DNA of 41,570 nucleotides from an uncultured Methanomicrobia archaeon (GTDB lineage: Archaea > Halobacteriota > Bog-38 > Methanoflorentales > Methanoflorentaceae), in NCBI GenBank assembly GCA_964355295.1, contig CAYHCZ010000005.1:1-41570 (forward strand). Reading direction: 5' to 3'. A model generated the notes under the pieces. That model was given only the letters and a program-made list of their open reading frames with translations, made no database searches and had not been told where the DNA came from. This document shows, piece by piece, positions 2,060-30,149 of this stretch (the first letter of the stretch is position 1; every line of letters begins with the position of its first letter). The position numbers and the translations under genes were made by a program.

Positions 2060-2209
2060 AAAAGACGAATTGATTGACGAAAATAAAGAAGCGATGCCCA
2101 TGCGTGCGACGTTGCATGCGGTGGGCGGCGCTTCGTGTGGTATGTGCTCCACGGCGAGCGCCACACAGCTGCTGTACGTTAAACGCTCGTGTAGCGAAAG
2201 GGGTGCGAC

Positions 2210-2856: not shown

Positions 2857-3300
2857 TCACGTTCCCGCTGTTTCGCCCAATGTTGCAAGCGGAACATAGG
2901 GCTGCTCTGATTCTCCAATAACTACTTTCCCGTCACTTTCCAGCCACGCATGTGCTTCGAACCCCTTTACCTCCCCCTCAGGCTTGGTCACCCCTACGTG
3001 GACGATAGTAGGATACCCGTAATGCGCGAGGAAGACCTGTCCAGCGAGCGCTTGGGTTAAACACGTCGCGCGGGGAACGTAGCAGCTGGCGATGCGCACC
3101 TCACGGGCAAGCTGCGCTGTAGTAGGCGCAACAGTACGTTTGTCACGTGGCGATGCAGTAATCCGCGAAAGCAGTGCCTGAAAACGCGGGAATCGAATTA
3201 CCGAGAGTCCGATTCTTACTCCCGCAACGATACAAAAAGCGCGAAGGAATCGTCGTTGCTCAGCTGACGTCAAAGAAATGAAACGACGAAAGTTACTCAT
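2857..3300 (-). CDS. Lasso peptide biosynthesis B2 protein (transglutaminase-like leader peptidase)
   Basis: ATCLTQAL (catalytic Cys) and FEAHAWLE (His) motifs; ATG at 3300 (MSNFRRF) overlaps the B1 stop. Confidence 0.93.
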   Translation of the reverse strand: MSNFRRFISLTSAEQRRFLRAFCIVAGVRIGLSVIRFPRFQALLSRITASPRDKRTVAPTTAQLAREVRIASCYVPRATCLTQALAGQVFLAHYGYPTIVHVGVTKPEGEVKGFEAHAWLESDGKVVIGESEQPYVPLATLGETAGT

Positions 3301-3592
3301 TATCAACGATGTCGATGAGGTCGTTTTTGGCGAGCTGCTGGAGGAGGGCGATGAGATCCTTTTCGCAGCGGTCGACTTCCACGTCGTACTCCTCAAGGAG
3401 GGTGTCGCGGACCTCTCGCACCGTCCGCGGCGTTTCTATGAGCTTCCAGATTCGTGCGCCGACGGGGTCTAACCCATAGTAGACGCCATCTTTGAGGTTA
3501 AGGATTGCCGCTTCATCCCCGAGATCGGCGGAGGCTTGTTCCTTTGACACAACGACGGTATTATCAAGTGTAATTTTAGTGTTGGTAACCAT
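3293..3592 (-). CDS. Lasso peptide B1 protein / PqqD-family RiPP recognition element
   Basis: 99 aa; DLGDEAAILNLKDGVYYGLDPVGARIWKLI and EYDVEVDRCEKDL are classic PqqD/RRE; adjacent to B2. Confidence 0.95.
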   Translation of the reverse strand: MVTNTKITLDNTVVVSKEQASADLGDEAAILNLKDGVYYGLDPVGARIWKLIETPRTVREVRDTLLEEYDVEVDRCEKDLIALLQQLAKNDLIDIVDNE

Positions 3593-3984
3593 AGTGCATC
3601 TTATCCGTGTACGCTGAGGACACTTTTAAAACACTTACGTCCGTATAGTTCATTCCGCCCCTTCGTATAAGTCTTTCTCGTATGTCAGCACGCCGGGCTT
3701 CTGGGACAACTCGACCACGCCAACGGCCTTGTCCGTGTAGATGTTGTGCCAGGGATCGCAACGAGGCCAAGCTATATCCCGCCCTTGTGCTTCCACCAGT
3801 TTACCTTCTTATGTGGCGTGGCGTGCTATCCTACACATTTTATTGTACCAAACAAGGTAAGGTATCTTCTGATGCGTGGCGCAATTTGAACCAGCTTTAA
3901 AGAGCGGCGCGTCGTGAACGGGTCACGGCCGTTTTGTGCGAAAAATAGGCAGTATTTATATGCTGAAGCATACTTTCTCCATCT

Positions 3985-4305
3985 ATGCAACAGCTAAAAG
4001 TGGGCGCAAGTATTATCACCGTTGCTTTGTTGGTTGGTACGGTCCTCATAGCTGGATGCACGTCAAATACTTCCAGCCAAAATTCAAATCAGAGCGCTAC
4101 CACGGCGGCGCTCACTAATCACTCAGTCACTGCGAATGCGACGAAGGCAGCAACACAAAGCGCTGTGGCAACTGCCCATTCGACCGCTGTAACAACACAG
4201 ACAACGGTAAAAGCCACGCCGACCCCACAGATAACGGTAAAAGCCACGCCGACCCCCTCTCGAGGCACTATAGCTCCTTCTGAGTCTCCATTTATTTTCG
4301 AATGA
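3985..4305 (+). CDS. Thr/Ala-rich lipoprotein, possibly truncated
   Basis: Signal peptide with lipobox LIAGC; S/T-rich linker; internal duplication TVKATPTP x2 (~4203-4257); TTTATAT upstream. Confidence 0.65.
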   Translation: MQQLKVGASIITVALLVGTVLIAGCTSNTSSQNSNQSATTAALTNHSVTANATKAATQSAVATAHSTAVTTQTTVKATPTPQITVKATPTPSRGTIAPSESPFIFE

Positions 4306-4531
4306 GGCTACACAATAAGCTCAATAAGCTATCCGGCTGAGTACTCGCGGTGTCAACCGTCACAGCCTGATGCAGTGAACAACACGCAGACGATAGCGCG
4401 TTCTAACGTTGCAGCGCTTCGTCGTCGAAGCTTGGCAGTCTAAACCTTAGCAAATTCGTAGCTGATGAACGATCTCAAAACGTGCCGATTCCAATGCGAG
4501 AGATCCGTTCGCGCTGGTTGTACGAGGTCGC

Positions 4532-4660
4532 TCAGCTAAAATGATAAATTGATCCGCCCTGGACGTCATCCCCAGCAGGTCCCAAAGATCGCGTTATCTC
4601 AGCAGTGGAACCAATGACCGTAAGCGAAGGCGTTTGATACGTTTTTTTGCTCGACTTCAT
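4532..4660 (-). CDS. Lasso peptide precursor A1: MKSSKKTYQTPSLTVIGSTAEITR|SLGPAGDDVQGGSIYHFS
   Basis: Hand-translated 42-aa ORF; leader YxxPxL...G...T(-2); core Ser1 with Asp7/Asp8, aromatic tail and C-terminal Ser; directly downstream of cyclase C1. Confidence 0.92.
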   Translation of the reverse strand: MKSSKKTYQTPSLTVIGSTAEITRSLGPAGDDVQGGSIYHFS

Positions 4661-4726
4661 TGCTACACGCCCCACGACAGGCTACACAAGCTTTGGCATA
4701 GTAAGGAACGTCAGCATCATGATGCC

Positions 4727-6667
4727 CTAGTCGATTATATATCTTGCTTTTCTTGTACGCGCATCTGACGCACGAGCGAGCCAGCACCGTAGCAGTGCTG
4801 CTTTAAAGAGTACAAGCTCACCACTGTTACAGCCGTTGCAGCATTGCTCGTATAGCCCACACAACTTTGCTGTATCCACATAGTCGCTAATGAGTGGGGG
4901 ACTGTCTGCGCACGTATCCTCCATGACGGCTCGATCGAAGGCAAGCAGACTCCGCCGCAAGTTGGGGGCTAGGTTTGACTTATCGCGGCGCCATTGAACT
5001 TCGGGGGGAAGGCACCCGCCTAAGGCACGTCGCGTGATTGAACGGGTCCATCCGTTTCTAACCTTCTGCTCAGTGGGCAGCGCGAGACAGAATTCGACGA
5101 GGCGTCGATCGAAAAAAGGATGGCGGATCTCGAGCGAGAAAGCCGCAGCGGCCTTGTCAGCGATCTCAAAGGCAGTCTGAATCCACGTGAACCTGAGCTC
5201 CTTTTTGTGCCATTCCCGCGCCATCCGGGATATCTGAGAGATCGTTAACGTGAGCGGTTCGCCGACGTCATCCAGGTGAGCTTTCTTGGCAAAATCAGAT
5301 CGTATGTAGGCCCGGTCAGGCACGCGTTGTATGCGACGCACCTTTCTCAACACCGTCGCGACCCTCTCGAGCGCGGTGTCGTGGATCAATGGGAGGGCCA
5401 CGAATTCCCAGAGGACGCGACGCCGTGTGACGCGCTTACGTGCGGCAAATGCGTCTAATTCTCGTCTGACGGCAGGCCAGTTGCGGGCGCACAGCAGTTC
5501 AACGAGAAACCCTCTGCCGTGTGAGACGGTCGTATCACCATCCTCGCCGTCGAGAAGCACCCGGACGTTCGCCTGGTGCGCGGCTTCAAGTAACGCCCAT
5601 TTCACGAAGAGGTTCCCCGCTCCGAACGGTTCCTCTTCGTGCCAGAGCATCTCGTCGCTTTGCATGAAGGGACCGAATCGATCGGGATGGACGTAGTGGG
5701 GGGCACAGTCGCCTTGATCGATGACGGCGTTTATGAAGGTGCGCTCGTCACATTGCGGCACGCTATCAAAAAGCGCTGAGAACGTGTGGAGTGGCAGTGA
5801 CGGCACGCTTCCGCGCGTGCCATCGTGTCTTAAGAGATCGCGGGCGACACACGTTACCGACGAGGAATCCAGGCCGCCGCTGAGCTCGGAGCCGACGGCG
5901 TTGGCACTCCGGAGGCGACAACGGACGGCTTCGGTGAAGATAGTAAGGAAGGCACGTTCGTACTCCTCGTCGGTGTTGTAGTGGACTTCTCGAGCGACGT
6001 CGAGAGACCAGTAGGCACGCAGGTGCGCGCGGTCTGAAGTCACCGTAAGAGCATGGGCTGCGGGAAGGCGGAGGATGTCTTCGTAGAAGGTGCTGGCGCG
6101 GTCATCCTGAACAGAGGCGAGATAGCGGGCGATCTGCGCCTCGTTTGGCCGCCGTGGCACCTCGGGGAGGCAAAAAAGGCCCCTCATCTCTGAGGCGAAA
6201 ACAAAGAGCGCGTCAGAGCGATAGTAGTAGAAGGGCTTTACGCCCATGTGGTCTCTCGCACAAAAAAGCACGCGCCGTTCGTCGTCCCATATGGCAAAGG
6301 CGAAGTCGCCGAGGAGGTGTTCGGGACAGTGCTCGCCCCAGCGTTCATACGCGCTAAGAATAAGCTGACTATCGGTCAGGGGTGATCCAGCTGCTGTGAA
6401 ATGCAGTGCGGCGATGAGCTCGTCGCGGTTATCAATACGGGCATCGGCGGTGATGGTAAAGCGGGCGTCGTCGCTGGTGCACGGAAGGTGTTCGTGAAGG
6501 GATTCGGGAGTCGTCCAGAGCATGCGGTGGCCGAGGCCAACCTGGCCATGGCGCCAGGTGTCGGACCCGTCGGGGCCGCGATGGGCGAGGGCGTCGTTCA
6601 TCAGGCCAATGGCTGAGGGGTCGACTTTTCGGTCGTCGTGCACGTAGATGCCGGTGATCGCGCTCAC
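4727..6667 (-). CDS. Lasso peptide cyclase C1 (asparagine-synthetase-like isopeptide-bond-forming enzyme)
   Basis: Likely start GTG at 6667 (MSAITGIY, Ser in place of the glutaminase Cys); HRGPD, DARIDNR, SGGLDSSS, RHPFFDRR. Confidence 0.92.
   Translation of the reverse strand: MSAITGIYVHDDRKVDPSAIGLMNDALAHRGPDGSDTWRHGQVGLGHRMLWTTPESLHEHLPCTSDDARFTITADARIDNRDELIAALHFTAAGSPLTDSQLILSAYERWGEHCPEHLLGDFAFAIWDDERRVLFCARDHMGVKPFYYYRSDALFVFASEMRGLFCLPEVPRRPNEAQIARYLASVQDDRASTFYEDILRLPAAHALTVTSDRAHLRAYWSLDVAREVHYNTDEEYERAFLTIFTEAVRCRLRSANAVGSELSGGLDSSSVTCVARDLLRHDGTRGSVPSLPLHTFSALFDSVPQCDERTFINAVIDQGDCAPHYVHPDRFGPFMQSDEMLWHEEEPFGAGNLFVKWALLEAAHQANVRVLLDGEDGDTTVSHGRGFLVELLCARNWPAVRRELDAFAARKRVTRRRVLWEFVALPLIHDTALERVATVLRKVRRIQRVPDRAYIRSDFAKKAHLDDVGEPLTLTISQISRMAREWHKKELRFTWIQTAFEIADKAAAAFSLEIRHPFFDRRLVEFCLALPTEQKVRNGWTRSITRRALGGCLPPEVQWRRDKSNLAPNLRRSLLAFDRAVMEDTCADSPPLISDYVDTAKLCGLYEQCCNGCNSGELVLFKAALLRCWLARASDARTRKARYIID
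4735..4741 (-). promoter_or_regulatory. Putative TATA box for precursor A1
   Basis: Minus strand AAAAGCAAGA-TATATAA about 75 nt upstream of the ATG, inside the 3' end of C1. Confidence 0.4.
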
Positions 6668-6973
6668 GTCGTAGCTCCGGGTTCTGACCAAAGCAAACAA
6701 CCAGTCACGCGGTAGTACGCTCCGCGTGCGCGTCTCTGCCGAGATCCTTTTGGCAGCACGCTAACGTGGGTGGGCTTTAGCGTATGGCTCCCAGAAGAGG
6801 GGTGTTCGCTCAAGGTGCCATTCCACCACAAACCTTTGTTCATGTACGTATTAAAGCTTGATGCCGCGTGCGACGCGGCACTGTTCGATGGGCGTTTCGA
6901 CTCCTGCCACAACGCAGGAGAGGAGCGACCTGCATCAGTAGCGCGCACACGTTCGTCGAGGCGGTCGTACGGA

Positions 6974-7873
6974 TCACTCTTTGACGGTGTTCACTGCAGC
7001 CTCGACAAGCCGCACTGCCTGCGGAATCTCATCGAGGGAGGCCCCCGTGTGCAAGCGGCGGACGCTGGCGGTGCGGAGCACACTCGCGCACTGCACCATA
7101 TTCCGCACAGTGGCGTCCGGCGTGAACATCCTGTAGCAATACGAATGACTCACGAGTTGAATAAGGGCTTCGTGCGGCGTGAGCGTTTCGATAGAAGGGA
7201 TATTGCCCCGGCTGAGCACGAAGACGTGGTTTAGGGGTTGCCGTTCCGCGGAGAAACGGCCTGCCGCGTGAAATGCCCGCTTTTCAACGGTGGGCCCCAC
7301 CCGTTCGAGGCGTTGCGGATCGTACGAAAAGCGCTGCAGAGATTGCGGCCAGCAGTTGATTTGGGGGCACGCGGGAATGACGGTTGACGCGTGCGCGTCG
7401 ACCTCGATTGCAGTTACGTCATCAGCGATGACGTAACGCCCTCGGGCGTAGAACGCCAGCGCAACGGTCGATTTTCCCTGTGCGGAGGTCCCTACAAAAG
7501 CGACTCCCTCGCCGTTTATCGTCAACGCGCTCGCATGAAGCACAAGCCGCCCCCGTTGGTGAAGGAGGGCACCAAACCCTGCCCCCAGCACCACTGCCCG
7601 CAGGACAGGTACAGGGACTTCTTCTAGGGGATCGATGATGATTTCACGGCCGTCACGCATCATTAGCGTACCGACATCATCCCAGAAGCGGTAGATGCAC
7701 TGGTTAGTGACGCAGAAGTCTGGCCCAGAAACCGTTCCTTGACCACCTGTCGAAGGTATCTCGAGACGGCCTAGAGAGATGGTCACGTCGGCATTATCGC
7801 TGGCGCACGTCTCAAGAGTGGGAAAGGAAAGAGCTGAGCGCGTCCCTAGGCCGTATATCGTGTAGTGGAACAT
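6974..7873 (-). CDS. HPr-kinase-like lasso peptide kinase K1
   Basis: LHQRGRLVLHAS, Walker A GTSAQGKST, IADD; probable start MFHYTIYGL (the ORF extends to 7945). Confidence 0.88.
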   Translation of the reverse strand: MFHYTIYGLGTRSALSFPTLETCASDNADVTISLGRLEIPSTGGQGTVSGPDFCVTNQCIYRFWDDVGTLMMRDGREIIIDPLEEVPVPVLRAVVLGAGFGALLHQRGRLVLHASALTINGEGVAFVGTSAQGKSTVALAFYARGRYVIADDVTAIEVDAHASTVIPACPQINCWPQSLQRFSYDPQRLERVGPTVEKRAFHAAGRFSAERQPLNHVFVLSRGNIPSIETLTPHEALIQLVSHSYCYRMFTPDATVRNMVQCASVLRTASVRRLHTGASLDEIPQAVRLVEAAVNTVKE

Positions 7874-8658
7874 TCGAATTGGTGCGAGTCGAGAGTACTT
7901 TTTGAACGTTATTCCCGTCAGTCTCTTATCTAAAACTTCAGTCAATATCTTTTTGCCGGGAACGCCAGATGAATCCCCTGTGTTCTGCTGGCGGTGCTCC
8001 GAGCGCTTGAGAAGGCATACGTATCCACCGCATTAATCTTTTTTCTTGTCACCGTCTCATTATGCACTGCTTCCCCGCTGATTCTCCCTCTTTGCGGATG
8101 TCCGTGCCGTCCCTCAGGTAGTAGTAGATGCAAACAGATTCTGGCGCGACGAAGCAGGCCCTTTAAACTCTCGTTGGAGACGCTCACGGTGCCGATCACA
8201 GAGCTGATCGCAGGCATAACAGGTTCGCGCAGAAAGGCTTCGAGATATTCGAGTCGGTGAGCCAACGCTCGACAACCACTACCTTCCCGAGCATAAACTC
8301 TCCCGCGCGTCCCGCGGACGCGGTCGTCGTACCTGCCGCAGGCGCTGACGGTCGGAATAGGGGTCGATCGGCAAGGTGCTCGACGTGAGCACGCGTTCAA
8401 GCGCATCGCAATCGAAGGTGATAGGACCGTGCCGAAAATCGGAGAAAAGGTCGCCGTGTCTGTCCGCATTAATGATGTCCTAAAGGAATGCATCAAAAAC
8501 GCTTGAGCAACATCGTAGCACCGTTGTACGTTCACTTAAAGGTGAAGAAGAGTACGGTTGATGTTTCGCCTCGCGCCGCTTCAGTAAAGCCGCTGCCACT
8601 GTAGAAAAAGAGAAAGGAAATAAGGGGAGGGAGCACGGGCCCTACCCCACCATCACCG

Positions 8659-9948
8659 TTATTTAGTCTCCGTGACGATCACCGTGATCGTATCACTCAC
8701 GCTCTCCCCATATATACTCGTCCCGGCAAAGTGTGCCCGTATGGAGTAATACGGATTTTCTGCTGTATTTGCTACGGTAATGTACCCTCTGAAGCTGTAC
8801 TGCCCCTGCGGGCCGGTGACCTTGTCCAGGCTGATGCGGTACCAGTCACCGTTATACAATGCCTCGAGGTAGACGGGCTGCCCGGCGAGGGGCCCCGTAT
8901 CCGTGCTGTGTGTGCCGGAGATGGTGAACTTGCCGTTCTTCGTTTCGGTTGTTTGGTGATTGCCGTTTACAATAGCGGTGAGGGTTGTCGGTCCCTTTGC
9001 GGTGACCGTGACGGTATCAGGCGTACTTGATGCTCCATAATGGTCGGTCACGATCTGGGTAAAGACGTAGTAGCCTGCCTTGTCCGGCGTGAAAGTGGGA
9101 TACTGTGCCGTCGTGTCGATGATGATGGCGCTTCCGGCCGGTTTCTTATCTACGGTCCACGCGAAGCTGAGCGGGTAGTGGTCGCCGGGGTCATACACGC
9201 CGCCGCCTAACGTTACGAGCGTGTTGACGGTGACTGTCTGATCTTGTAACGCGTTTGGGACGGGTGGCGCGTTCGTTGCCGTTATCGTGACGCTGTCTGG
9301 CGTGCTCGAAAGGCCGAGGTTGTCCGTCACGGTGAGGGTAAAGACGTAGTCGCCCACTTTGTCCGGCGTAAATGAGGGGCGCGAGTCAGTCGGGTTAGCG
9401 AGCGTGATGGAGCTTCCGGCCGGTTTCTTATCTACGGTCCACAAGTAGGTGATCGGAAGGTGGTTGTCAGTTTCATGGCTCAAGTCTCCGACTAACGTCT
9501 TGCTGTGGTAGATCTCCAGCGATGAATCGGGTCCAGCCTCTGCGACGGGCGGTATGTTCGTTGCCGTTATCGTGACGCTGTCTGTGTCACTTAACCCGCC
9601 AGTATCGGTCACGATCTGGGTAAAGACGTAGTTGCCCACCTTGTCCGGCGTGAAAGTGGGATATTGTGCCGTAAAGCTCGAGAGGGTAATGGTGCTTCCG
9701 GCCGGTACGTTATCTATGGTCCACATGATGGAGAGCTGCCAGGGCCAATCTTCGATGTCCGAGATCCCCCCGCCTAACGTCACGGGGGTGTTGACGACGG
9801 TGACTTCCCGACTATCTCCCGCTTCTGCGTGGGGTGACTCGTTCGCCGCTGCAGTTATCGTAGATCCCACAAAGATCGAGAGCATCATCATCACTACAAC
9901 TGCCGCGCCCAGTGCTCTCGTCAACCTTTTTTTGCGCGTTTTATTCAT
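8659..9948 (-). CDS. Secreted PKD/Ig-like repeat surface protein
   Basis: Signal peptide; three PKD-like repeats (W...PAGS...TFTPDKxGxYVFT...D.VT.TA); C-terminal Big-like domain; pyrimidine-rich terminator-like tract at ~8604-8627. Confidence 0.85.
   Translation of the reverse strand: MNKTRKKRLTRALGAAVVVMMMLSIFVGSTITAAANESPHAEAGDSREVTVVNTPVTLGGGISDIEDWPWQLSIMWTIDNVPAGSTITLSSFTAQYPTFTPDKVGNYVFTQIVTDTGGLSDTDSVTITATNIPPVAEAGPDSSLEIYHSKTLVGDLSHETDNHLPITYLWTVDKKPAGSSITLANPTDSRPSFTPDKVGDYVFTLTVTDNLGLSSTPDSVTITATNAPPVPNALQDQTVTVNTLVTLGGGVYDPGDHYPLSFAWTVDKKPAGSAIIIDTTAQYPTFTPDKAGYYVFTQIVTDHYGASSTPDTVTVTAKGPTTLTAIVNGNHQTTETKNGKFTISGTHSTDTGPLAGQPVYLEALYNGDWYRISLDKVTGPQGQYSFRGYITVANTAENPYYSIRAHFAGTSIYGESVSDTITVIVTETK
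8678..8968. repeat. Domain-encoding repeat, copy 1 (copy 2 at 11615..11890)
   Basis: High nucleotide identity by eye; copy 1 carries 15 extra nt. Confidence 0.85.
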
Positions 9949-10285
9949 CTTTCTCTCTCGGAATTTTAGTCAAGCGTTCGCCGTTGCGCCTTGTTCAATG
10001 TTAACAAGTAGCATACGTGTAACGGCAAATGTAATTAATGTGAAATTGACGCAAACAGCGAATCTAAATTGTATAATGTGTCGTTATTGCCGTTAAAGTT
10101 TGCTATCAATTACGTGTAGCAGCGTTGTGTCACAACGATGATAACAACGTGAGGCCGTAAATCGTGTGCTACATCGCCAGGCTCAAGACGAGGTTGATGG
10201 GAGGAAAGGATCAGGTCGGTGGTCTCATGATGGTGCCCTCGCGTTTCTAGTCGTGCCTAAGGGATTAAATGGTCATAAAAGCGAT

Positions 10286-10688
10286 TTAGATACTGACGTC
10301 AAAAAACCGAGCTTTGACATGGCGGAGGTCGCCGGTCCGAATCCGGCCGAGCCCATTAGAATCGCCCTCCTTCTTATTTTTGTGAAGTTTATTGCGTTCG
10401 TTTAAAAGAAGAAATGATTTTAACTCACTGATCTGTGATTCAAGCGCTTCAAAGTGTCGGTCATAGGCTGTTTCATCGTCTGGTTTTAACTATCTCGCTG
10501 GGTTGTAAAACCATGTCATAGTTTAGCACTTGCTGGTTAGTAACAAGTAGAGAAGGCCTTTTTCCATTTCGTTCGGTTTCAAAAACGTCCGCTATTTCAC
10601 CGACAGTATCAGCAAGATGTGGGGGTAGCCGAATTTGAGGGTAATCTTCTGACAAACGCAGCTCACCAAACCCAAAACAATGTCGCAA
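10286..10688 (-). pseudogene. Frameshifted N-terminal fragment of an SSV-type tyrosine integrase (intN)
   Basis: ORF 10473..10688 continues after a frameshift as LKPDDETAYDRHFEALESQISELKSFLLLNERNKLHKNKKEGDSNGLGRIRTGDLRHVK, reading through the antisense tRNA fragment as split archaeal integrases do. Confidence 0.55.
10314..10355 (+). tRNA. 3' half of tRNA-Val(GAC): partial, attachment-site remnant
   Basis: TTGACAT GGCGG AGGTC GCCGG TCCGAAT CCGGC CGAGCCCA = anticodon loop, T-arm (TTC mutated to TCC) and acceptor 3' strand; no 5' half upstream. Confidence 0.8.
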
Positions 10689-10985
10689 CTAGTTGCGACT
10701 ATTCGCCTTGTGGTTCAACGCCGCGCGAGCGGGCAATGATGGAAAGTGTCGAAACGTGGCGCGAGAAATGAATAAACCAAAGCGACTGGTTAGCTGGTCC
10801 TCTGTTTGGCGTGTCTCGTTAGCACGTCTACAAATAACTCCCGGGCCCAAACAGCACGTTTACAGATGCGCGCTTTTACATTGCTCCGACGAAATAAGCT
10901 CCGCTGCGTGTGGTTGCCGAAAAAATAAGGAAGGGGGGCGCCCCCCGCGGACGGTTCACCACGGTCTACGACGAGGTGCGGTACG

Positions 10986-12012
10986 TCAGGGGGGGATAGG
11001 AGCGGTTATATCGCTCTCTGAAGCCGCATAGGTCGAATCTCCTGCAAATCTCGCTTGATAGAAGTTGCCGGCCGGTACCATTTCAACGAAATTCGACAAT
11101 GTACTATCAGTGGTGGTTACGTCAACCTTTGAATTGAGTGTCGTTGGGGTCGGCCCATAGTATATACTTACTGTTAGACCAGCGAGAGGATTACCGCCCA
11201 GGTCCCTTAGATACCCCTCGAACCAATAGGGTACATCTGGTGAGGCCGAGGCCCAAACGGCAAAATCTCCGATCTGCGTCAAGGTCTTGTAAGTATGGTC
11301 GTACGGTGCAATGAGCGTTTGCGTCTCTACACTCAGTTGATTGCCTAAAGCGTCAAAGGTCTTGAGCGTCACCACCACTGGTACGCTCGCGCTTACGTCG
11401 GGGTATCCATATGTGTCTACAAAGGGTTGTGGTGATGTGACAGAATAGCTCCACCCCCGCCCCGCATACGAGCCGCTGGAACTTATTTCATACAATGCAA
11501 TGTTGCTTGGGGGGGTATTCACCTGCTATGATCATCCAGTTCGCATGCCACATAGAGTAGTAAGAATCGTACGTCCAGCCCTGAAAAGTCGCGGTCATCA
11601 GTGAAGTTTTGACTATCACCGTGATCGTATCACTCACGCTCGCCCCATACGCGCTCGTCCCGGCAAAGTGCGCCCGTATGGAGTACGTTCCTACTACGGT
11701 AATGTACCCTTTGAAGCTGTACTGCCCCTGATTACCGGTGACCTTGTCCAAGCTGATACGCTGCCAACTCCCCTCATACAATGCCTCGAGGTAGACGGGC
11801 TTCCCGGCGAGGGCTCCGGTATCCGTGCTGAGTGTGCCGGTGATGGTGAACTTCCCGTTCTTTGTTACGTCTATGTTGTGGTTGCCGTTTGTGGTCGCGG
11901 TGAGCGTTGTTGGTGCTGCACCGTTCGCGCTAGTTTTTACAGCAGCTGTTGCGACAAACAAAGATAACAACATCAGAGCCACTAAAGATAACGATAACAC
12001 TTTTTTCATCAT
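10986..12012 (-). pseudogene. Secreted Ig-like surface protein split by a 1-nt frameshift (ORFs 11488..12012 and 10986..11522)
   Basis: Signal peptide plus Big-like domains; removing one G from the G7 run at 11509-11515 joins IIAGEYPP to SNIALYE. Confidence 0.7.
11615..11890. repeat. Domain-encoding repeat, copy 2
   Basis: Matches 8678..8968. Confidence 0.85.
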
Positions 12013-14660: not shown

Positions 14661-14779
14661 AATTTCGACCTCATCGCAATTTGTATAGACCGCGTCACGT
14701 TATAAAGCTTGACGACGGCAAGAAACGTAAGGGGGCTCGCCCGCGCGGCACCGAAGATGCACAAGTGAGGTCCCAAGCA

Positions 14780-16705: not shown

Positions 16706-17446
16706 AGACTCTTCTGAAATCAGTTAGCTAACTGTAACGGTTAAGCTTTCCCATTGTGGCATACGTATCATCAAGCTTCAAACCAAGAGGTAATGATACT
16801 GATAACCGGCCCCTCTGCTAGTGAGACAACTGCCTTGCGTACAAGTGATTACGTCTGCGAAAGAATCTCGCTAAACAAAAGTTGCTGCCAGATTCATAGC
16901 CTGCGATAACCGTGCTCATCTGCTCGGATGAGGTAAGTGAGCTAATACATGTAGTTTCTTTCAAGAGACGCGATTACGAGATACTGTAGATCCGATAGCT
17001 TTAGTGAGTGCTCGTTTTATCGTTGGTTTACTTGTTGAAGCTGTGTCTCGGACTATTGGCTAGCCTGCAAGTATGGCTGCCGTTTCTGCTAGCTTCTGAA
17101 TCGCTTTGCTAAACTGCGTGAAGCATGGTACTCTCGCTTGAGGGGTCCCTTAGGTTTCAGCTCCGATGTTCTCCTTGTGACAACTTATAGGGGTTTTATG
17201 AGGACGCATTTTTCAAGAGCATTGCAAACTTTGCAGCACGATAGATAACTACTTGCAACACTGTCACAGAATCTCACAGAGGCTGGCAGGTCTAGTTCTT
17301 GCTTGCGGGGGTGATTCAGCGGCCATAAACGAATGCGTTATTACCTCCAATCGGGTCTGTAAACGCTTCCAGTTAGACGAAGCGAAGCGCTTCGAGGGGG
17401 GCAGCGGCACGAGGTTTCAACTGCTGCTGCTAACATCGAGGGGTTA

Positions 17447-18424
17447 TTACCACCTGATCTTGACTGCATCTTCTATCAGATGTACGAGCGCCGGAAGCGA
17501 CTCGAGAGAGCGACACGTTCTGGCACGAAGGGTTGTTGTCGACGCAGCGACGCGTGCGCAGCGCGATAGGTGCGTGACGATCTCCTCTTCAGCTAGCAGC
17601 CTAAAGCAATAGGAGTTATCGAGAAGCGCGGCGAGGCTTTCTCGGCGCGAAAGTCTTTTCAGAGCACTTTCAGCAGCTGGATCGAGAACGCATAAGTACT
17701 TAAGGGGAACATCGGCGTCGGGAAATTGCTGTCGCACTGGAAAAGCGCGCTTCACCGAGTAGGGGGTGCACGTGCTCAACGTCGCTGGGTCGTGCGAGAG
17801 TGCCGCCAATGTATCGGGCCAGAGGTTTATTTCGGGATACGCAGGCGGAACGACTGGCGATGGCCCGTCGAGCTTGACGGCGACAACGTCGTCGGCCACT
17901 AGCTGGTGTCCGCGGGCGTGGAGCGCGAGGGCGAGGGTCGATTTTCCTCGTCCTGATTTCCCAAGAAAAATAACTGCTTCACCATCGATCGCAGCGGCGC
18001 TTGCGTGAAGAGTAAGGAAACCCCGCTGGTGGAGGAGCGCTGCAAATACGTCTGTAAGAATCATCTTGCGAAGTACTCTCTCATCTGCGCCGGGCGACGG
18101 ATTGACGGTGATCTCTCGTCCGTTTTGCACCAAAAACGTCCCAATGCCTTCCCAGAACAGGAGTATACCTCGCGAAGCAACGCGATAGTTCGCGCCAGCT
18201 GCAGTGATTTCGTCTGACGCCGGTAATGAGCTTACACGGCCGTAGCGGACTACAACGTCGACTTTTGTTGGGGCGCTCACGGGAGCGCTGAAAAAAGGGA
18301 TGACAGAAGCAACGCTTAGTCCGTATAACGTACAAAAGTACGATCCATTTGTCACTGGCGCTTGCTTCAAAACATCTGTTGTCACTAACGCGTGGTCTTT
18401 TTTAATGCAATCTGCAGAAACCAC
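17447..18424 (-). CDS. HPr-kinase-like lasso peptide kinase K2
   Basis: LHQRGFLTLHAS, GKSGRGKST, VADD; start uncertain. Confidence 0.88.
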   Translation of the reverse strand: MVSADCIKKDHALVTTDVLKQAPVTNGSYFCTLYGLSVASVIPFFSAPVSAPTKVDVVVRYGRVSSLPASDEITAAGANYRVASRGILLFWEGIGTFLVQNGREITVNPSPGADERVLRKMILTDVFAALLHQRGFLTLHASAAAIDGEAVIFLGKSGRGKSTLALALHARGHQLVADDVVAVKLDGPSPVVPPAYPEINLWPDTLAALSHDPATLSTCTPYSVKRAFPVRQQFPDADVPLKYLCVLDPAAESALKRLSRRESLAALLDNSYCFRLLAEEEIVTHLSRCARVAASTTTLRARTCRSLESLPALVHLIEDAVKIRW

Positions 18425-18471
18425 GCCACCGCTCAGACTTTGTCGATTTCAACGTAAAAGGTCGAATATTA

Positions 18472-18536
18472 AGGATCTCGCTCGGGATCCGCCCCGAGAT
18501 CCTACGGTTTTGGCGAAACCTGACTTTCGTCAGGTT
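18472..18536 (-). terminator. Two stem-loops at the 3' end of precursor A2
   Basis: AACCTGAC-GAAA-GTCAGGTT (18517-18536, perfect 8-bp stem over the stop codon) and AGGATCTCG...CGAGATCCT (18472-18503). Confidence 0.55.
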
Positions 18537-18670
18537 CCTTGAGTTTTCGCTCGGGGGGCTGGAGAGCCGTCGCCTGAGCCCGTCCCTCGCAGCGTATATT
18601 CCCTCAAGGATCCGATACAAGTCAACTTTGGCTGTGAGTAATTCCTTTTTGTGCGGTCTTCTATGTTCAT
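18530..18670 (-). CDS. Lasso peptide precursor A2: MNIEDRTKRNYSQPKLTCIGSLREYTL|RGTGSGDGSPAPRAKTQGT
   Basis: Hand-translated 46-aa ORF; YSQPKL...IG...T(-2) aligns without gaps to the A1 leader; core has Asp7; lies between C3 and K2. Confidence 0.9.
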   Translation of the reverse strand: MNIEDRTKRNYSQPKLTCIGSLREYTLRGTGSGDGSPAPRAKTQGT

Positions 18671-18713
18671 TTTGATACCCTACACTTAACAAATGTGATA
18701 GATTATCGTTTGC

Positions 18714-18720
18714 TTATATA
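18714..18720 (-). promoter_or_regulatory. Putative TATA box for precursor A2
   Basis: Minus strand AAG-TATATAA-GC about 45 nt upstream of the ATG. Confidence 0.5.
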
Positions 18721-18833
18721 CTTAACATCCCACGAGGACTTAATTGTTCCTATTTGTCGCGCTCGCACAAACGCGTGCTAGAGCTACACCGCGAAAGCGG
18801 TGTAAGAGCCTTGAGGTCACCGATCCTCATAAT

Positions 18834-20747
18834 TCACTCGACAAAGCTAGCGTTGCGTTCTTTCTCCTTTTGTAGCCAAAGTTCTAGAACAACAACTTGC
18901 CACACTGCGTACCCTCCCCGAGTATCCCCTTTGGTCACCAAGTCAAACGCTTTGCGGGCTTGAGAGATCTCAACGTAATTATCGACCAGGCGATGCTCCT
19001 TTGACAAGACTTCCTGCACAAGCGCCTTGTCAAACGTACGTAAACCACGATAGAAGACTGCCGCATTGCTCGATTTGTCAACTCGACATCGTATTGCGCG
19101 CGGAAGACAATTAACCAATGCACGCCGCGCCACTACCCTGTTAAACCCTGCGCTTAGCTTTTGCTCTGCTGGGAGGGCTAAGCAGAACTCGACCAACCGC
19201 CGGTCGTAAAACGGATGTCGGCCCTCCATTGAAAAATCTGCAAAAATCTGATCCATCACTTCTAGGTCAAATTGCACTTTCGGCGCCGTAAGGTCTTTGT
19301 AGTGCCTCTCGCGCGCCGTCCGGGTCGTCGATCGAGCACGGTCGACGATGTCCACTTGCGGCTCGAGCTTAATGCGCTCAGCAAAGTCTCGTTTAATCAA
19401 CAGTTCTGGGGCTGCTGGCTGCACTACCTGTGGCACTGCCCTACGCAACGTTCTACGAACGATGTTAGGCGCTGATGCGACCAACATAGGTAACAAAATG
19501 TCACGTCGTGATCTATGAGTACGCTTAGAGAGCGCGTTGATCTCCCGTAGCAGGGTGCGCAGTTTCAGGTTGCGCGCCAGTTCAAAGAAACGGCCGTCGC
19601 CATGCGATACGACACTATCACCGTCCTCGCCGTCTAAGATCACACGAATCCGAGCATTTCGGGCGGCTGCCAGCAATGCCAGCCCAATTTGATCGCCGGC
19701 CGAGTGATAAAGCTGATCGAGTTGCCGCACAATCTCCTGAACGTCATCAAAAGGGTCTCGCTCATCAGCCGGCACTAAATGGGACTCAAGATCGCCTTGG
19801 GCAACGATCGCGTTGATGAAGTAACGCTCGTCACTCTCCGGCACATTGTCGTAGAAAGCGGAGAACGTTTGGAGCCGCTGTGATGGTAAACGCCCGTTTA
19901 GATCTTGCTTCCTCAGCAGCTCACGCGCTACGCACACGACCGAAGATGAGTCAAGTCCGCCGCTAAGCAGTGACCCGACAGGATAAGCGCTGCGGAGGCG
20001 ACAACGAACGGCTTGTGTGAAGAGGTCACGATAAGCACGCGCATACTCCTCATCTGAAGCAAGGTGGATTTCACGCGTAGGATCAAGGAACCAATACCGA
20101 CGGAGTTCGACACGTCGATCGCTGATAAGCAACGTATGAGCGGCAGGCAACCGCACGATGTCGGCGTAGAAAGTGATTTCCCGGTCCTCAAAGTTGCTTT
20201 TCAAATAATGCATTATTTGCACCTCGTTGACCTTCCGGGGAACGTCCGGGACAGTGAAGAGGGCTTTGATTTCGGAAGCGAAGGCAAAAAGGTGATTTTG
20301 AGCGTGATAGTAATAGAATGGCTTGACCCCCATGTGGTCTCGGGCACAGAAGAGCTGCTGCTGAGAGCCGTCCCATATAGCAAACGCGAAGTCGCCGAGG
20401 AGGTGTTCGGGACAGTGCCGGCCCCAGCGGTCGTATGCACGAACGATGAGCTCGCTGTCGGCGATCTCGTCAGGTGATGCAGTTAAGCCAAAAACTGAGA
20501 TGAGCTCATCACGATTATCGATACGAGCATCACTCGTCACGGTGAGTGGGGCAAGGGTGAACGGCAATCGTTCGTAAAGGGATTCCGGAGTCGTCCAGAG
20601 CATTCGGTGGCCGAGCCCGACGGAGCTTTCTTGCCACGTGCCCGCAGCGTCGGGACCGCGTCGCGCGAGGCTATCGGTCATGTGCTCAAGTAGGCTAGGG
20701 TCAAGACTCTTGTCATCAAGGCGATAAATTCCGAGAATGCCGCTCAT
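18834..20747 (-). CDS. Lasso peptide cyclase C3
   Basis: MSGILGIY, RRGPD, DARIDNR, SGGLDSSS, RHPFYDRR. Confidence 0.92.
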   Translation of the reverse strand: MSGILGIYRLDDKSLDPSLLEHMTDSLARRGPDAAGTWQESSVGLGHRMLWTTPESLYERLPFTLAPLTVTSDARIDNRDELISVFGLTASPDEIADSELIVRAYDRWGRHCPEHLLGDFAFAIWDGSQQQLFCARDHMGVKPFYYYHAQNHLFAFASEIKALFTVPDVPRKVNEVQIMHYLKSNFEDREITFYADIVRLPAAHTLLISDRRVELRRYWFLDPTREIHLASDEEYARAYRDLFTQAVRCRLRSAYPVGSLLSGGLDSSSVVCVARELLRKQDLNGRLPSQRLQTFSAFYDNVPESDERYFINAIVAQGDLESHLVPADERDPFDDVQEIVRQLDQLYHSAGDQIGLALLAAARNARIRVILDGEDGDSVVSHGDGRFFELARNLKLRTLLREINALSKRTHRSRRDILLPMLVASAPNIVRRTLRRAVPQVVQPAAPELLIKRDFAERIKLEPQVDIVDRARSTTRTARERHYKDLTAPKVQFDLEVMDQIFADFSMEGRHPFYDRRLVEFCLALPAEQKLSAGFNRVVARRALVNCLPRAIRCRVDKSSNAAVFYRGLRTFDKALVQEVLSKEHRLVDNYVEISQARKAFDLVTKGDTRGGYAVWQVVVLELWLQKEKERNASFVE

Positions 20748-20798
20748 TGGGGGGTTCCATCAACTGCGCTGGTGTCTTCGCGCCATCCGTTGTTTAGG

Positions 20799-21812
20799 TT
20801 AGGTGCTCGAAGTTGATATACGCTTAAAGCGTTCCCGTGCCGCCCCCAGGGTGTACAGAATGTCAACTGCGATCGTGGCCCCTGCGAGTGCGGTGATTTG
20901 ACCTGGGTTATCGTACGGCGGCGAGAGCTCCACAACATCTCCACCCACGATGTTCAATCCTTCAACGCTCCATAGAATTGCGCGGGATTTAAACGTGTCC
21001 GGCCCGCCAATCACGGGGGTGCCGGTTCCGGGCGCAAAAGCAGGGTCAATGAAATCGATGTCAAATGTCAGATAGACGGGGCTTTCACCGACGATCTTTC
21101 TGACTTCATTACCGATCTGCGCTGCCGTGTGCTCATTCACGAAGAGCCCATCAAGAACGCTAAAGCCTTTACCCGTCGATCGATCGTATGGCGAGCGGAC
21201 GCCGATGTGCACAGAGCGCCGCGGATCGACCAGACCTTCCTGAACGGCACGATAGAACTGGGCACCGTGATTGTACTCTTCTGAGTCGAGGTCATCGGTG
21301 TGGGCATCAAAGTGAACGAGTGACAGAGGACCATAACGTTTGGCATAAGCGCGAAGAATAGGGTACGTAGCGAAATGGTCGCCTCCGAGCATTAAGATTG
21401 ACGCACCAACGCTTAGAATGAGCCCGGCCATTAACTCTGTGTTCTTGATCATCTTCTCAGGATGGCCTGGCGGACACCGCACGTCGCCGAAGTCTCGGGT
21501 CTTATACCTCTCTTTGACATCATAGTCTCTCGGCCACGCACGTCCACGTCCGTGCAGGCCGGTATACTGCGAGAGATCACGAAGGGCGCGAGGTCCAAAG
21601 CGTGCCCCTGGCCGGTAAGAAGTGCCGAGATCGAACGGGATTCCGAGAATGGCTAGCTCGGTGTCAGCTTGGTCAGTAGGAAACGGCGCATTCATAAAAG
21701 AGGTATCAAGGCCGACTAGAGCTTGGTGCCCCTCTCTGTTAATGAGGTCTTCTAACTTTCCATCCGCGTCAGGATTCTTTCGCACAGTCGCTCCCAATTT
21801 TGCTATATCCAT
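20799..21812 (-). CDS. speB: Agmatinase/arginase-family (ureohydrolase) protein
   Basis: GIPFDLGTSYRPGARFGP, GGDH, DAHTD, DIDFIDPAFAPGTGTP; Mn ligands intact; substrate not established. Confidence 0.88.
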   Translation of the reverse strand: MDIAKLGATVRKNPDADGKLEDLINREGHQALVGLDTSFMNAPFPTDQADTELAILGIPFDLGTSYRPGARFGPRALRDLSQYTGLHGRGRAWPRDYDVKERYKTRDFGDVRCPPGHPEKMIKNTELMAGLILSVGASILMLGGDHFATYPILRAYAKRYGPLSLVHFDAHTDDLDSEEYNHGAQFYRAVQEGLVDPRRSVHIGVRSPYDRSTGKGFSVLDGLFVNEHTAAQIGNEVRKIVGESPVYLTFDIDFIDPAFAPGTGTPVIGGPDTFKSRAILWSVEGLNIVGGDVVELSPPYDNPGQITALAGATIAVDILYTLGAARERFKRISTSST

Positions 21813-22009
21813 TTTCTAATCGAACACATATAAACTCTCACCGTTCTGCGACTTTTTGTGTCAGCGGTTCTCTTTCTTTATTGGGATTATCGAATTAAGT
21901 AATCAATAGTCTATAATCCGAATATTAGGGGGCGCTGCTGTGGAAAACTTTAAGAGACCTTTCGAATTGGCGCGCTCGAGAGGAAAGGTTAACTAAGGAT
22001 CGGTCAATA

Positions 22010-22435
22010 TCGCCACGTCCTCAACCTGCTTGTTGATGCGCTTAATGAGAACAAAAGAGCACTAAACGACTCAAAAATTGCCGTTCTTGGAATTGCTTAC
22101 AAGGAAAACTTGGGAGATTATCGCGAGAGCCCGACGGAACGGTTGATCGAAGGACTCAAAAAGGGGAGAGCAAGGATCCATCTTGTTGATCTACACGTGG
22201 ACCAGGACATCTTGCGTACATTTGCAACACCTGAGGCGACCGTTTACGACACTCTAAATTCTGCGGATGCTCTCGTCCTCATGACTGCACATAGCGATTT
22301 TGCGGACTTGACCTATCAAAAATAAAGGATATAATGCGCACTCCAATAATCGTAGATGGACGAAGGATGTTCGACCCTGGAGCAACTGCTGAAATTGGAT
22401 TCACCTATAAAGGTGTAGGAGCTGTAAACAAATGA
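22010..22435 (+). pseudogene. C-terminal remnant of a UDP-sugar dehydrogenase (WecC/WbpA-like)
   Basis: KIAVLGIAYKENLGDYRESP...ADALVLMTAHSDF, frameshift near 22320, then IMRTPIIVDGRRMFD...YKGVG; N-terminal domains absent. Confidence 0.8.
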
Positions 22436-22788
22436 CGCATCAAGAAATTTAGCTCGTCGGGCTTCTGGGCCGGCCCGACCCGGCAACTTCCCCCTTTGCT
22501 CTGAAAATATGCACCGCCCAGAGAATGGATTAAGCGCTTAAACAGAAGCGTGTTTGTCTTTCATTGTCGAAAGCCAAGATTTTCAAGAACCCCTTCATAC
22601 TGTCTAAAAAGGCTTTCGAAATAGAGCTGCGGAAACGTCGGTACCTTGTCACTGTCACCGTTTTCCGTCTGCAATCGAAGTGCTACCGGATGATCATGCG
22701 GGAAATACGGTGGGTTGCAGGCGCTTCGTTTTAGCAATATCATGTGCTCCTCGTATAGATAGAAGTCTGGAAGCTCTGCGCTTCATAG

Positions 22789-23958
22789 CTAGAGTCGGGG
22801 TTGCAACAGTGAAACGACAAATTCCACCGTCACGCGAAGAGGGTGGTAAAAGTAGTAAAAAGGCGTCAATGACGCCGGCAAGGACATAAGGCGAAAATCG
22901 TTTGCTGTAGGTACGAAAACATAAAAAAAGAGGATATGCACACGGTCTCTCAAGCTCTCTTTGGTCGCCAGCCGGTCAAAAACACTATCAAACTTTGAGC
23001 GGCGCTTAGGTTCTTTAAAAAGCGCATCTCTTGCATGCTCAGCAAGCTTTCGCGCTCCAGCATCGCGCTTAGCAGCAGCCAAAACCTCTTCAGGCACTGG
23101 TATATTGAAGAGATCGCACACCAAGAGGAGGCTTACAAAAAGCGCTCGTTGACCCTTCGTCTTTTGCACCTGCTCCCAAAGAAGGTCCCAATTGAGGCGA
23201 GGATACCGGTAGATGATCTCCGCCACGTCACTTATTACATCAAGAGAGAGCCAAAGATGACTCGCCGCGTGAATGCATGAAACGAACAGCAGATCCTCTG
23301 CGGATAGGATGCACACATTTTCGCCGAGCAAGCATATATCGGACGAGTTATTCACGAGATCCGGCACGATTGACACACGTAGATATGCAGCAGACATGAT
23401 ATCCCAATGCAGGTCGACCTCGGCCTCACCGAAAGCCGCGCTCTCAAACTGACGCTCAAAGCCACACTTGAGAAGAAGGCGCTCTTGGACGCTGTTGCAG
23501 CGAATCCGAGGTTCATACTCGGCTGAACGAAGTAGTACCTGCACGCGTGCAAAATCTTCTTTGAGTATCAAGATGTCAAGATCCTCACTACGCCGAATGC
23601 CAACATCCTGGTATATTAGTTGTGAGAAAACGGGCCCTCGTAAGGGAATCAAAAGGATGCCGTTATCTTTAAACAAACGAATGAGGCGACGGAGCTCTCC
23701 AATCAAGCCTAGGTTCCTTAGCACGTTCTTCTCAAAATTACAACGCAGGTCATCCATTACTATTAACGGCACGCGATCAAACGCCAAGTCGTTAAGATGC
23801 TTGTAAAGGCGGGCCACTACCAAGTGCCGCTCCGCGAGCGCAACAAGGCGGTTCCAGTCAACGTCCTCCTCCAGCAACGCGTGAGCGCGCTCCGCGGCAG
23901 GGCCGTCGAGGTGTGCCCGCGCACATAACAACAATAACTCTTCTTCGGGCGTGCTCAT
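22789..23958 (-). CDS. Nucleotidyltransferase family protein (NTP_transf_5, lasso-associated type)
   Basis: DWNRLVALAERHLV, PLRGP (usually LKG), RRSEDLDILI, VDLHW, CIHAASH. Confidence 0.85.
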   Translation of the reverse strand: MSTPEEELLLLCARAHLDGPAAERAHALLEEDVDWNRLVALAERHLVVARLYKHLNDLAFDRVPLIVMDDLRCNFEKNVLRNLGLIGELRRLIRLFKDNGILLIPLRGPVFSQLIYQDVGIRRSEDLDILILKEDFARVQVLLRSAEYEPRIRCNSVQERLLLKCGFERQFESAAFGEAEVDLHWDIMSAAYLRVSIVPDLVNNSSDICLLGENVCILSAEDLLFVSCIHAASHLWLSLDVISDVAEIIYRYPRLNWDLLWEQVQKTKGQRALFVSLLLVCDLFNIPVPEEVLAAAKRDAGARKLAEHARDALFKEPKRRSKFDSVFDRLATKESLRDRVHILFFYVFVPTANDFRLMSLPASLTPFYYFYHPLRVTVEFVVSLLQPRL

Positions 23959-27564: not shown

Positions 27565-27799
27565 TGCTTCACTGTTGCAGCTTGTTGCAGTTCGTTTTTT
27601 CTTTGCCACGCTCTGAGTGCCTCGATGTTCTCGCAGCGTCGATAATGAACGATCGTAGAAAAGGCAGGCGCCGGTTCGAAAGGCCTCCGGTTTTTAGAAG
27701 CGAGACTAGCGATGGTGCGATTGCACCGAGAGTTATCCACAATATGTTATCAAAATAAAAAGATAGTTAGACCTCTTCTCAATAACTATCAGGTCGACC

Positions 27800-30141: not shown

Positions 30142-30149
30142 CAATGCTT

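Follow-up and report, generated by a model that had tools for sequence, protein, structure and literature searches.

Gene content and organization of the lasso-peptide island

The window analysed here is a whole contig of 41,570 bases (CAYHCZ010000005.1) from one metagenome-assembled genome of an uncultured Methanomicrobia archaeon. The assembly, of 302 contigs and 2.08 Mb, has a completeness of 60% and a contamination of 2%. A lasso-peptide gene set lies on the minus strand of the window between positions 2857 and 23958: a leader-recognition protein (B1), a leader peptidase (B2), three lasso cyclases (C1, C2 and C3), two HPr-kinase-like genes (K1 and K2) and two precursors (A1 and A2). The same strand of this region also carries an ABC exporter, an NTP_transf_5 nucleotidyltransferase (N) and an agmatinase-type ureohydrolase. 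Pfam and NCBIfam profile scans placed all the genes listed in a preliminary description of this DNA on the minus strand, at or near the positions given there, and matches to Asn_synthase, PqqD, Transglut_core3 and NTP_transf_5 were all obtained in the island. We consider that the region is probably a lasso-peptide biosynthetic island that moves horizontally and resides here in the genome of an archaeon, with one B1/B2 pair feeding both A1 and A2. The lasso genes, with their open reading frames (ORFs) and profile scores, including those of a leader hidden Markov model (HMM), are as follows.

2857..3300, minus strand: B2, leader peptidase (transglutaminase-like Cys protease), 147 aa from the likely ATG at 3300; ORF open to 3396
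3293..3592, minus strand: B1, PqqD-type leader-recognition protein, 99 aa; PF05402, 72 bits (cut-off 23.4)
4532..4660, minus strand: A1, precursor, 42 aa; leader HMM, E = 2.8e-5; NF033528 lasso_cyano, 31.1 bits (cut-off 33)
4727..6667, minus strand: C1, cyclase, likely GTG start at 6667, ORF open to 6700; NF033535, 777.4 bits
6974..7945, minus strand: K1, HPr-kinase-like peptide kinase with P-loop and DD motif; Hpr_kinase_C (PF07475), 31.9 bits
12789..14660, minus strand: ABC exporter with fused membrane and ATPase domains; ABC_tran, 119 bits; ABC_membrane, 43.5 bits
14780..16705, minus strand: C2, cyclase with no precursor adjacent; NF033535, 710.4 bits
17447..18424, minus strand: K2, HPr-kinase-like peptide kinase, best PDB matches HPr kinases; PF07475, 41.3 bits
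18530..18670, minus strand: A2, precursor, 46 aa; leader HMM, E = 1.7e-3; NF033528, 15.7 bits (cut-off 33)
18834..20747, minus strand: C3, cyclase; NF033535, 744.3 bits
22789..23958, minus strand: N, NTP_transf_5 nucleotidyltransferase, sole copy in the assembly; PF14907, 166.7 bits

Transcription runs in the order N, ureohydrolase, C3, A2, K2, C2, ABC exporter, PKD/Ig-like genes, K1, C1, A1, B1 and B2. The upstream genes are separated by 976 bp (N to ureohydrolase), 51 bp (ureohydrolase to C3) and 163 bp (C3 to A2), those of the middle part by 105 bp (A2 to K2), 741 bp (K2 to C2) and 119 bp (C2 to ABC exporter), and those downstream by 306 bp (K1 to C1), 66 bp (C1 to A1) and 939 bp (A1 to B1). 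B1 and B2 overlap by 8 nt, the start of B2 lying over the stop of B1. The genes would be read as several same-strand transcription units, namely N alone, ureohydrolase-C3-A2-K2, C2-ABC, K1-C1-A1 and B1-B2. The island is not contiguous. Secreted PKD/Ig-like genes at 8659-12012 divide the lasso region into two halves, and these are complementary in that B1 and B2 occur in one only and the ABC exporter and N in the other only. The region had been thought to consist of precursor-cyclase-kinase modules; such modules are uneven, as the three cyclases are accompanied by only two precursors and two kinases. Among sequencing runs, one DNA run with a small share (0.06) was listed, and no RNA run was listed.

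Three intact lasso cyclases

All three cyclases exceeded the 525-bit cut-off of NF033535, the model of the lasso peptide isopeptide bond-forming cyclase ('lass_lactam_cya'). Each carries the Asn_synthase and GATase domains of Pfam, has Ser at position 2 together with the SGGLDS motif, and retains an open reading frame; the genome's own asparagine synthase AsnB, encoded on another contig, has Cys2. The comparison of these proteins covered the 117 positions at which at least 95% of 73 related cyclases agree. C1 kept 116 of them, C2 111 and C3 114, with every deviation being conservative, and AsnB kept 66. A PDB sequence search with the cyclase returned only asparagine synthetases and their relatives. 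The initial lasso call is upheld by the scores of C1-C3 on this curated model, all above its cut-off, and by their grouping away from AsnB.

A scan with the cyclase alignment of one genome per species gave 79 related lasso loci (given L-numbers below), which were examined within 10-kb flanks. The nearest belong to genomes named Methanobacteriota archaeon (L010, at 55% identity, and L011), Euryarchaeota archaeon (L013 and L055) and Methanomicrobia archaeon (L045). Most of the others are cyanobacterial, at 39-47%, and some come from Chloroflexota, Acidobacteriota, Nitrospirota and other groups. Homologues of B1 were found in 70/79 loci, of the kinase in 68/79, of B2 in 57/79, of NTP_transf_5 in 45/79 and of the ABC exporter in 9/79. 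ABC homologues that are 47-63% identical adjoin the lasso genes in archaeal loci L010, L013 and L072. In the relatives the genes usually run B1-B2-C-A-K-N, and the precursor follows the cyclase without a gene between them. Two cyclases occur in 10 of the 79 loci, B1 is doubled in 8 of those 10 and B2 is never doubled; no related locus has three cyclases within the flanks examined. L010 contains two cyclases and one each of B1, B2, kinase and ABC exporter. L055 is a C-A-K module with no B1 or B2 within 10 kb; the full cluster L013 is on the same closed chromosome, about 64 kb away. Together with similar scattered modules, L055 points to dependence on a distant B1/B2 as a trait of this archaeal family.

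The three cyclases of the window fell into one clade with those of L010, L011, L013, L045 and L055, with a support of 99 for 6 rows in a first tree and of 80 for 9 rows in a second. The first tree had 78 rows, and its motif filter dropped several cyclases, including those of L011, L013, L045 and L072. The dropped cyclases were restored in the second tree, in which every third cyanobacterial row was kept (51/94 rows). L089-L093, L099-L102 and L105 were outside both trees, their places being already represented. The archaeal clade sits in an unresolved bacterial radiation, with the Methanobacteriaceae locus L072 outside the clade; both were quick LG+G4 trees with SH-aLRT support only, and they do not tell in which direction genes passed between bacteria and archaea. 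C2 is the sister of one L010 cyclase (support 99). It adjoins the ABC exporter, and its L010 counterpart likewise has no precursor. C2 is an intact paralogue; its substrate is most likely A1 or A2, or else a precursor encoded in the 40% of the genome that is unassembled.

Cyclases above the NF033535 cut-off were present in 5 of 41 relatives. In the phylum sample of 401 genomes, 7 had them, and 5 of those 7 belong to the family of the window. One genome of the same genus carries cyclase genes or fragments on three small contigs. In another family of the phylum, two adjacent lasso-type cyclases lie on opposite strands at G245:C6:318578-322369, and both pass the cut-off when same-frame neighbouring matches are summed.

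Two precursors with a common leader motif

We built the leader HMM from 40 precursor leader segments of other genomes and searched with it the 47,634 peptides from a six-frame translation of the whole assembly. Only A1 and A2 matched below E = 0.01, the next best match being at E = 0.44, and the selection of exactly these two peptides is far beyond chance. Both sit 66-163 nt downstream of a cyclase, as in the relatives. The A1 leader reads Y-x-x-P-x-L...G...T, with Thr at -2, and the A2 leader shares with it the pattern Y-x-x-P-x-L...T-x. The predicted core of A1 has 18 aa, with Ser1, Asp7 and Asp8, a bulky Tyr-His-Phe near the end and a C-terminal Ser. The predicted core of A2 has 19 aa, with Arg1, Asp7 and a C-terminal Thr. 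First core residues other than Gly, Ala, Ser or Cys (Gln, Lys, Val and Asn) are common in the predicted precursors of the relatives, and a C-terminal Ser occurs in 21 of 61 peptides found by regular expression in related loci, a set that includes false positives.

A third precursor was absent from the assembled DNA, as judged by a six-frame search with the regular expression, a reading of the gaps in all frames and the genome-wide leader HMM. The gaps flanking C2 contain no peptide gene, and a relaxed search beside both L010 cyclases gave no precursor.

A single B1/B2 pair

B2 matched Pfam Transglut_core3 (PF13471) at 73.8 bits and NF033537 lasso_biosyn_B2 at 92.2 bits (cut-off 33). Its Cys112 and His149 (ORF numbering) are kept in at least 98% of 58 aligned B2 sequences; a PDB sequence search with B2 gave no match. 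An assembly-wide profile search found a single PqqD, a single Transglut_core3 and a single NTP_transf_5 gene in the assembled 60% of the genome.

The predicted complex of B1 with A2 scored 0.61, the best control reaching 0.01; the 0.61 mark was passed by 58 of 80 solved complexes and by 2 of 110 mismatched pairs. The model runs had a contact agreement of at least 92% and a partner pLDDT of at least 57. In the model, residues 8-23 of A2 contact B1, and this stretch is the Y-x-x-P-x-L...G leader motif. The prediction supports the binding of the leader of this distant precursor by B1. The proposal that one B1/B2 pair serves several modules is plausible in view of the single copies in the assembly, the L055 module far from B1/B2, the B2 that is never doubled in the related loci and the complex model.

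Tailoring genes and a proposed maturation scheme

K1 and K2 are 37% identical (E = 5e-69). The literature cited by PMC number here and below is represented by excerpts of the papers. In these, the HPr-kinase homologue of paeninodin-type clusters transfers phosphate to the C-terminal Ser of the linear precursor, in some cases repeatedly (PMC8498205), and an uncharacterised NTP transferase is needed in pseudomycoidin biosynthesis for the attachment of one or two hexoses to the phosphate (PMC6993621). Variants with Thr or Tyr in place of Ser were not phosphorylated in a related HprK-like system (PMC13381572). The set of kinase and nucleotidyltransferase genes is paeninodin/pseudomycoidin-like, in agreement with the preliminary description.

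We infer the whole maturation chemistry of A1 and A2 by analogy with these systems. The single B1 would bind the Y-x-x-P-x-L motif common to both leaders, and B2 would cleave after the residue following the conserved leader Thr. The adjacent cyclase would adenylate Asp7 (or Asp8 in A1) and join it to the new N-terminus, which is Ser1 in A1 and Arg1 in A2, in a macrolactam of 7 or 8 residues, with the tail trapped. The HPr-kinase-like enzymes would phosphorylate a Ser of the linear precursor, the A1 site most likely being the C-terminal Ser. The NTP_transf_5 enzyme would put a hexose on the phosphate, and the ABC transporter would export the product. With its Ser1, Asp7/8, bulky residues and terminal Ser, A1 is a good fit to a phosphorylated lasso scheme. 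Given the terminal Thr of A2 and the lack of phosphorylation of S-to-T variants, the K2 site may lie elsewhere, with the internal Ser5 or Ser9 as candidates.

Archaeal host and probable mobility of the island

The assembly encodes TBP, and among 14 control genomes the same search matched only the four archaea. Window positions 24583-30128, from the UDP-glucose dehydrogenase to a methyltransferase, are 85%, 82% and 81% identical in DNA to three genomes of the same genus. One of these genomes is a single contig, and in none of the three do lasso genes adjoin the matching stretch. On the other side, positions 5-1024 belong to a multi-copy element that is 68-75% identical to copies in five same-genus genomes. 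The archaeal assignment, first made as a probable one, is thus borne out by the TBP gene and by the matches of both cluster flanks to same-genus genomes. No archaeal 16S gene and no mcrA were found in the 60%-complete assembly, which is uninformative at that completeness. The first kilobase of the window has two ORFs, one of them weakly YdjM-like, with up to three copies in one same-genus genome, and positions 1-2005 are 87% identical to assembly contig C249.

A deleted version of the island was found in the same assembly. The end of assembly contig C1 (about 55375-59068; not to be confused with cyclase C1) is collinear with window positions 1951-2531, 2866-3027 and 27809-30131, and about 290 bp there replace the 24.8 kb between the flanks. 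A 3' fragment of B2, with 84% DNA identity, is left on that contig, where a stop and a frame change interrupt it. The same two flanks are joined independently on this second contig, which argues against a chimeric contig. The locus on assembly contig C1 is either a paralogous locus from which the island was lost or derives from a co-binned related strain. Atypical composition, reported below, fits accessory, horizontally moving DNA; taken with the deleted copy, it points to mobile accessory DNA of patchy occurrence (7/401 phylum genomes, 5 of them in one family).

Ureohydrolase and other genes in and around the island

Further features of the region, besides the lasso genes, are the following.

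20799..21812, minus strand: agmatinase-type ureohydrolase, 51 nt upstream of C3, with a putative role in the pathway; PF00491, 256 bits
8659-9948, 10986-11522 and 11488-12012, minus strand: three secreted PKD/Ig-like genes, with PKD/Ig Pfam matches
22110..22325, plus strand: dehydrogenase remnant, 71 aa, within the 976-bp gap; PF03720, 44.1 bits (cut-off 30)

The ureohydrolase scored 337.9 bits with the agmatinase model NF002564 (cut-off 302) and 206.2 bits with TIGR01230 (cut-off 174.3), and its best PDB matches are chains named agmatinase (E = 1.6e-76), which we take to be bacterial, E. coli SpeB among them. Its sequence contains GGDH, DAHTD and D-I-D-x-x-DP, presumably the motifs of the Mn-binding site, and from its sequence the enzyme looks catalytically intact. 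It is a second copy, since the genome has its own archaeal-type gene on another contig. There was no close homologue in 23 other genomes of the family, the best match being 33% identical; the 21 other family genomes with a match have the archaeal-type ureohydrolase only (28-33% identical). Homologues occurred in 2 of the 79 related loci, at 23% identity only, and in none of the archaeal loci. These counts rule out the ureohydrolase as a conserved cluster member, and its earlier listing with the cluster is not supported by conservation. The gene arrived with the island and may be cargo. A role for it on the Arg-containing A2 is unlikely.

No homologues of the PKD/Ig-like genes were found in the 79 related loci, and they probably stand outside the lasso pathway. 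The PKD-domain protein and an Ig-like protein have a common 106-aa C-terminal domain (77% identical). Two Ig-like ORFs in different frames, 11488-12012 and 10986-11522, have 35 nt in common and may represent a single gene with a frameshift. The remnant at 22110-22325, between N and the ureohydrolase, is the UDP-binding domain of a UDP-glucose/GDP-mannose dehydrogenase; a copy of the intact dehydrogenase at 24812-26146 is ruled out, as the two have no significant similarity. ORF X197 (7942-8535) is probably non-coding, since it matched no Pfam or NCBIfam family and had no homologue in the 79 loci. The sole plus-strand ORF in the cluster, at 3985-4305, encodes 106 aa, rich in Thr and Ala, with a signal-peptide and lipobox-like start, and holds a 30-nt tandem repeat at 4196-4256.

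A nucleotide-sugar/polysaccharide locus (24812-40320) adjoins the island. It includes a UDP-glucose dehydrogenase, a sugar nucleotidyltransferase, a DegT aminotransferase, a methyltransferase, a GT4 glycosyltransferase, a Polysacc_synt flippase, a hexapeptide acyltransferase and a DUF2206 membrane protein. Lasso clusters within capsule loci are described for Bacilli in the excerpts of PMC13381572. The GC content of the window drops to about 43-45% past 30.2 kb. Positions 41453-41570 match four places about 300 bp apart on assembly contig C12 at 74-100% identity, and this repeat is the assembly break. ARAGORN, run on the whole assembly, called a tRNA-SeC (anticodon tca) and two irregular tRNAs, which may be false calls.

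Discussion

Comparison with known systems

The island is a member of the known kinase/nucleotidyltransferase lasso family and of the NF033535 cyclase clade. It resembles the paeninodin cluster of Paenibacillus dendritiformis C454 in its split B1/B2, Asn-synthase-like cyclase, HPr-kinase homologue and ABC exporter, and the C-terminal Ser of A1 is like that of the paeninodin precursor (PMC8498205). Unlike that cluster, it lies in an archaeon and has three cyclases, two kinases and two precursors in the order C-A-K; A2 ends in Thr, and the predicted first core residues are Ser and Arg. This likeness to paeninodin is one of gene set, and not one of sequence comparison with PadeK or PadeC.

The pseudomycoidin nucleotidyltransferase PsmN is presumably a member of Pfam NTP_transf_5. 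The pseudomycoidin cluster of Bacillus pseudomycoides DSM 12442, like the island, combines a kinase with an 'uncharacterised NTP transferase' (PMC6993621). The DD pair of the metal site of its kinase also occurs in K1 and K2, and the D-x-D site of its nucleotidyltransferase corresponds to D-L-D in N (PMC6993621). It differs in having one cyclase and the order C-A-K-B1-B2-N-D, and the excerpts of PMC6993621 mention no ureohydrolase.

Within the 'lass_lactam_cya' clade, to whose members C1-C3 are 40-55% identical, the module order is the same and the precursor directly follows the cyclase, as in the island, and two-cyclase loci with a single B2 occur (10/79). The difference is that B1 is doubled in 8 of those 10 loci, whereas it is single in the island. 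No characterised product from this clade was found in the literature searched. The same-family archaeal loci L010, L011, L013, L045 and L055 are like the island in their ABC and B1 proteins (54-69% identical) and in their scattered modules, some with cyclases that have no B1/B2 or precursor nearby. They differ in that the identity is only 46-56%, there is no DNA-level synteny beyond the genes and no ureohydrolase is present. We also compared the linear polyphosphorylated peptide (LPP) clusters of Bacillota; on the side of likeness, the island abuts a nucleotide-sugar/polysaccharide locus. LPP clusters are defined by a SipW-like signal peptidase, and none was seen among the scanned ORFs of the window.

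The preliminary description had treated both the archaeal setting and the composition of the cluster as new. Both claims are overstated. According to PMC7533575, Tietz et al. 2017 had flagged lasso clusters in Euryarchaeota, and predicted ones also appear in PMC12214591 and PMC12480086. No isolated archaeal lasso peptide was found in the literature searched. As to composition, two-cyclase loci make up 10 of the 79, and archaeal L010 already combines two cyclases with single copies of B1, B2, the kinase and the ABC exporter. New are the three intact cyclases, one of them precursor-less, in one island, the one B1/B2 pair for two leaders, the island-specific ureohydrolase and the deleted island copy in the same assembly.

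Alternative explanations

Several observations weigh against a single mobile archaeal system with a shared B1/B2. There are three cyclases for only two precursors and two kinases. Unrelated surface-protein genes, the dehydrogenase remnant and five intergenic gaps of 700-1040 bp lie within the lasso region, features that suit a locus in rearrangement or decay. Two profile scores fall short, that of K1, at 31.9 bits just below the Pfam gathering score of 33.3, and that of B1 on NF033536 lasso_PqqD_Bac (74.6 bits, cut-off 80). A2 ends in Thr instead of Ser. The GC content of the island is 53.4%, compared with 47.9% for the genome, and its tetranucleotide correlation, 0.61, falls under the value of 0.747 that marks the 5th percentile for 23 other 20-kb pieces. 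As the genome is 60% complete, more B1/B2 genes or precursors may exist. Lasso leader-recognition proteins are known structurally in complex with their leaders. The B1-A2 complex may therefore have passed by its likeness to such complexes and not by binding of its own.

The best-surviving alternative, which we nonetheless think unlikely, is that two or three separate lasso clusters came to lie side by side after duplication and rearrangement, without working as one system, and that the half comprising ABC, C2, K2, A2, C3 and N matures its peptide without B proteins or is decaying. Pseudomycoidin was made in vivo without leader and without B1/B2, and a cyanobacterial B-less cluster is noted in the same excerpts (PMC6993621). 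The genes, remnant and long gaps that divide the region, the precursor-less C2 and the deleted version, which keeps only a B2 remnant on another contig, also fit this explanation. Against it, the three cyclases have open frames and keep 111-116 of the 117 conserved positions, the halves complement each other and B1 is predicted to bind the A2 leader. We retain one island with a shared B1/B2 as the more probable reading.

A stronger version of that reading would be a combinatorial system, in which one B1/B2 pair, two precursors and three cyclases act together, C2 giving a second ring register or topology (for example Asp7 versus Asp8 in A1) and the ureohydrolase converting Arg1 and/or Arg13 of A2 to ornithine. 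Peptide arginases (OspR-like) convert Arg to ornithine in ribosomal peptides. If true, such tailoring would be a step not known for lasso peptides; we regard the combination as improbable.

That the cluster is bacterial, its contig having been mis-binned or being a chimera of bacterial lasso DNA and archaeal DNA, appears very unlikely. The composition of the lasso region does depart from the rest of the bin, most cyclase relatives are cyanobacterial, the ureohydrolase has its best PDB matches in the agmatinase chains and bin contamination is estimated at 2%. Against this, both sides of the cluster match same-genus archaeal genomes and a second contig joins the same flanks; the nearest cyclases, in one clade with those of the window, are in metagenome-assembled genomes named as archaea, a closed chromosome included; and lasso cyclases of this type occur in 5 of 24 genomes of the family. 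The idea that C1-C3 are other amidotransferases and the small ORFs chance can practically be dismissed: the three do exceed the cut-off of the generic asparagine synthase model TIGR01536 (273-287 bits, cut-off 267), but their lasso-model scores are 2.5 times higher, Ser replaces the Cys2 nucleophile that a separate AsnB in the genome retains, their family is consistently linked to B1, B2 and kinase genes over the 79 loci, and A1 and A2 were recovered by an independent leader HMM.

Significance

Archaeal lasso peptides are known only as predictions in the literature searched. The island supplies two short, well-defined cores and all the enzymes for a first reconstitution, and is a good expression target. 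It would also allow a test, set up by nature, of the number of cyclases that a single B1/B2 pair and a single leader motif can serve. The extent of such sharing bears on lasso engineering, and also on the recent finding, in the excerpts of PMC13381572, that leader-recognition proteins discriminate between co-located pathways. Being patchy in occurrence and mobile, the island is relevant to gene flow between bacteria and archaea.

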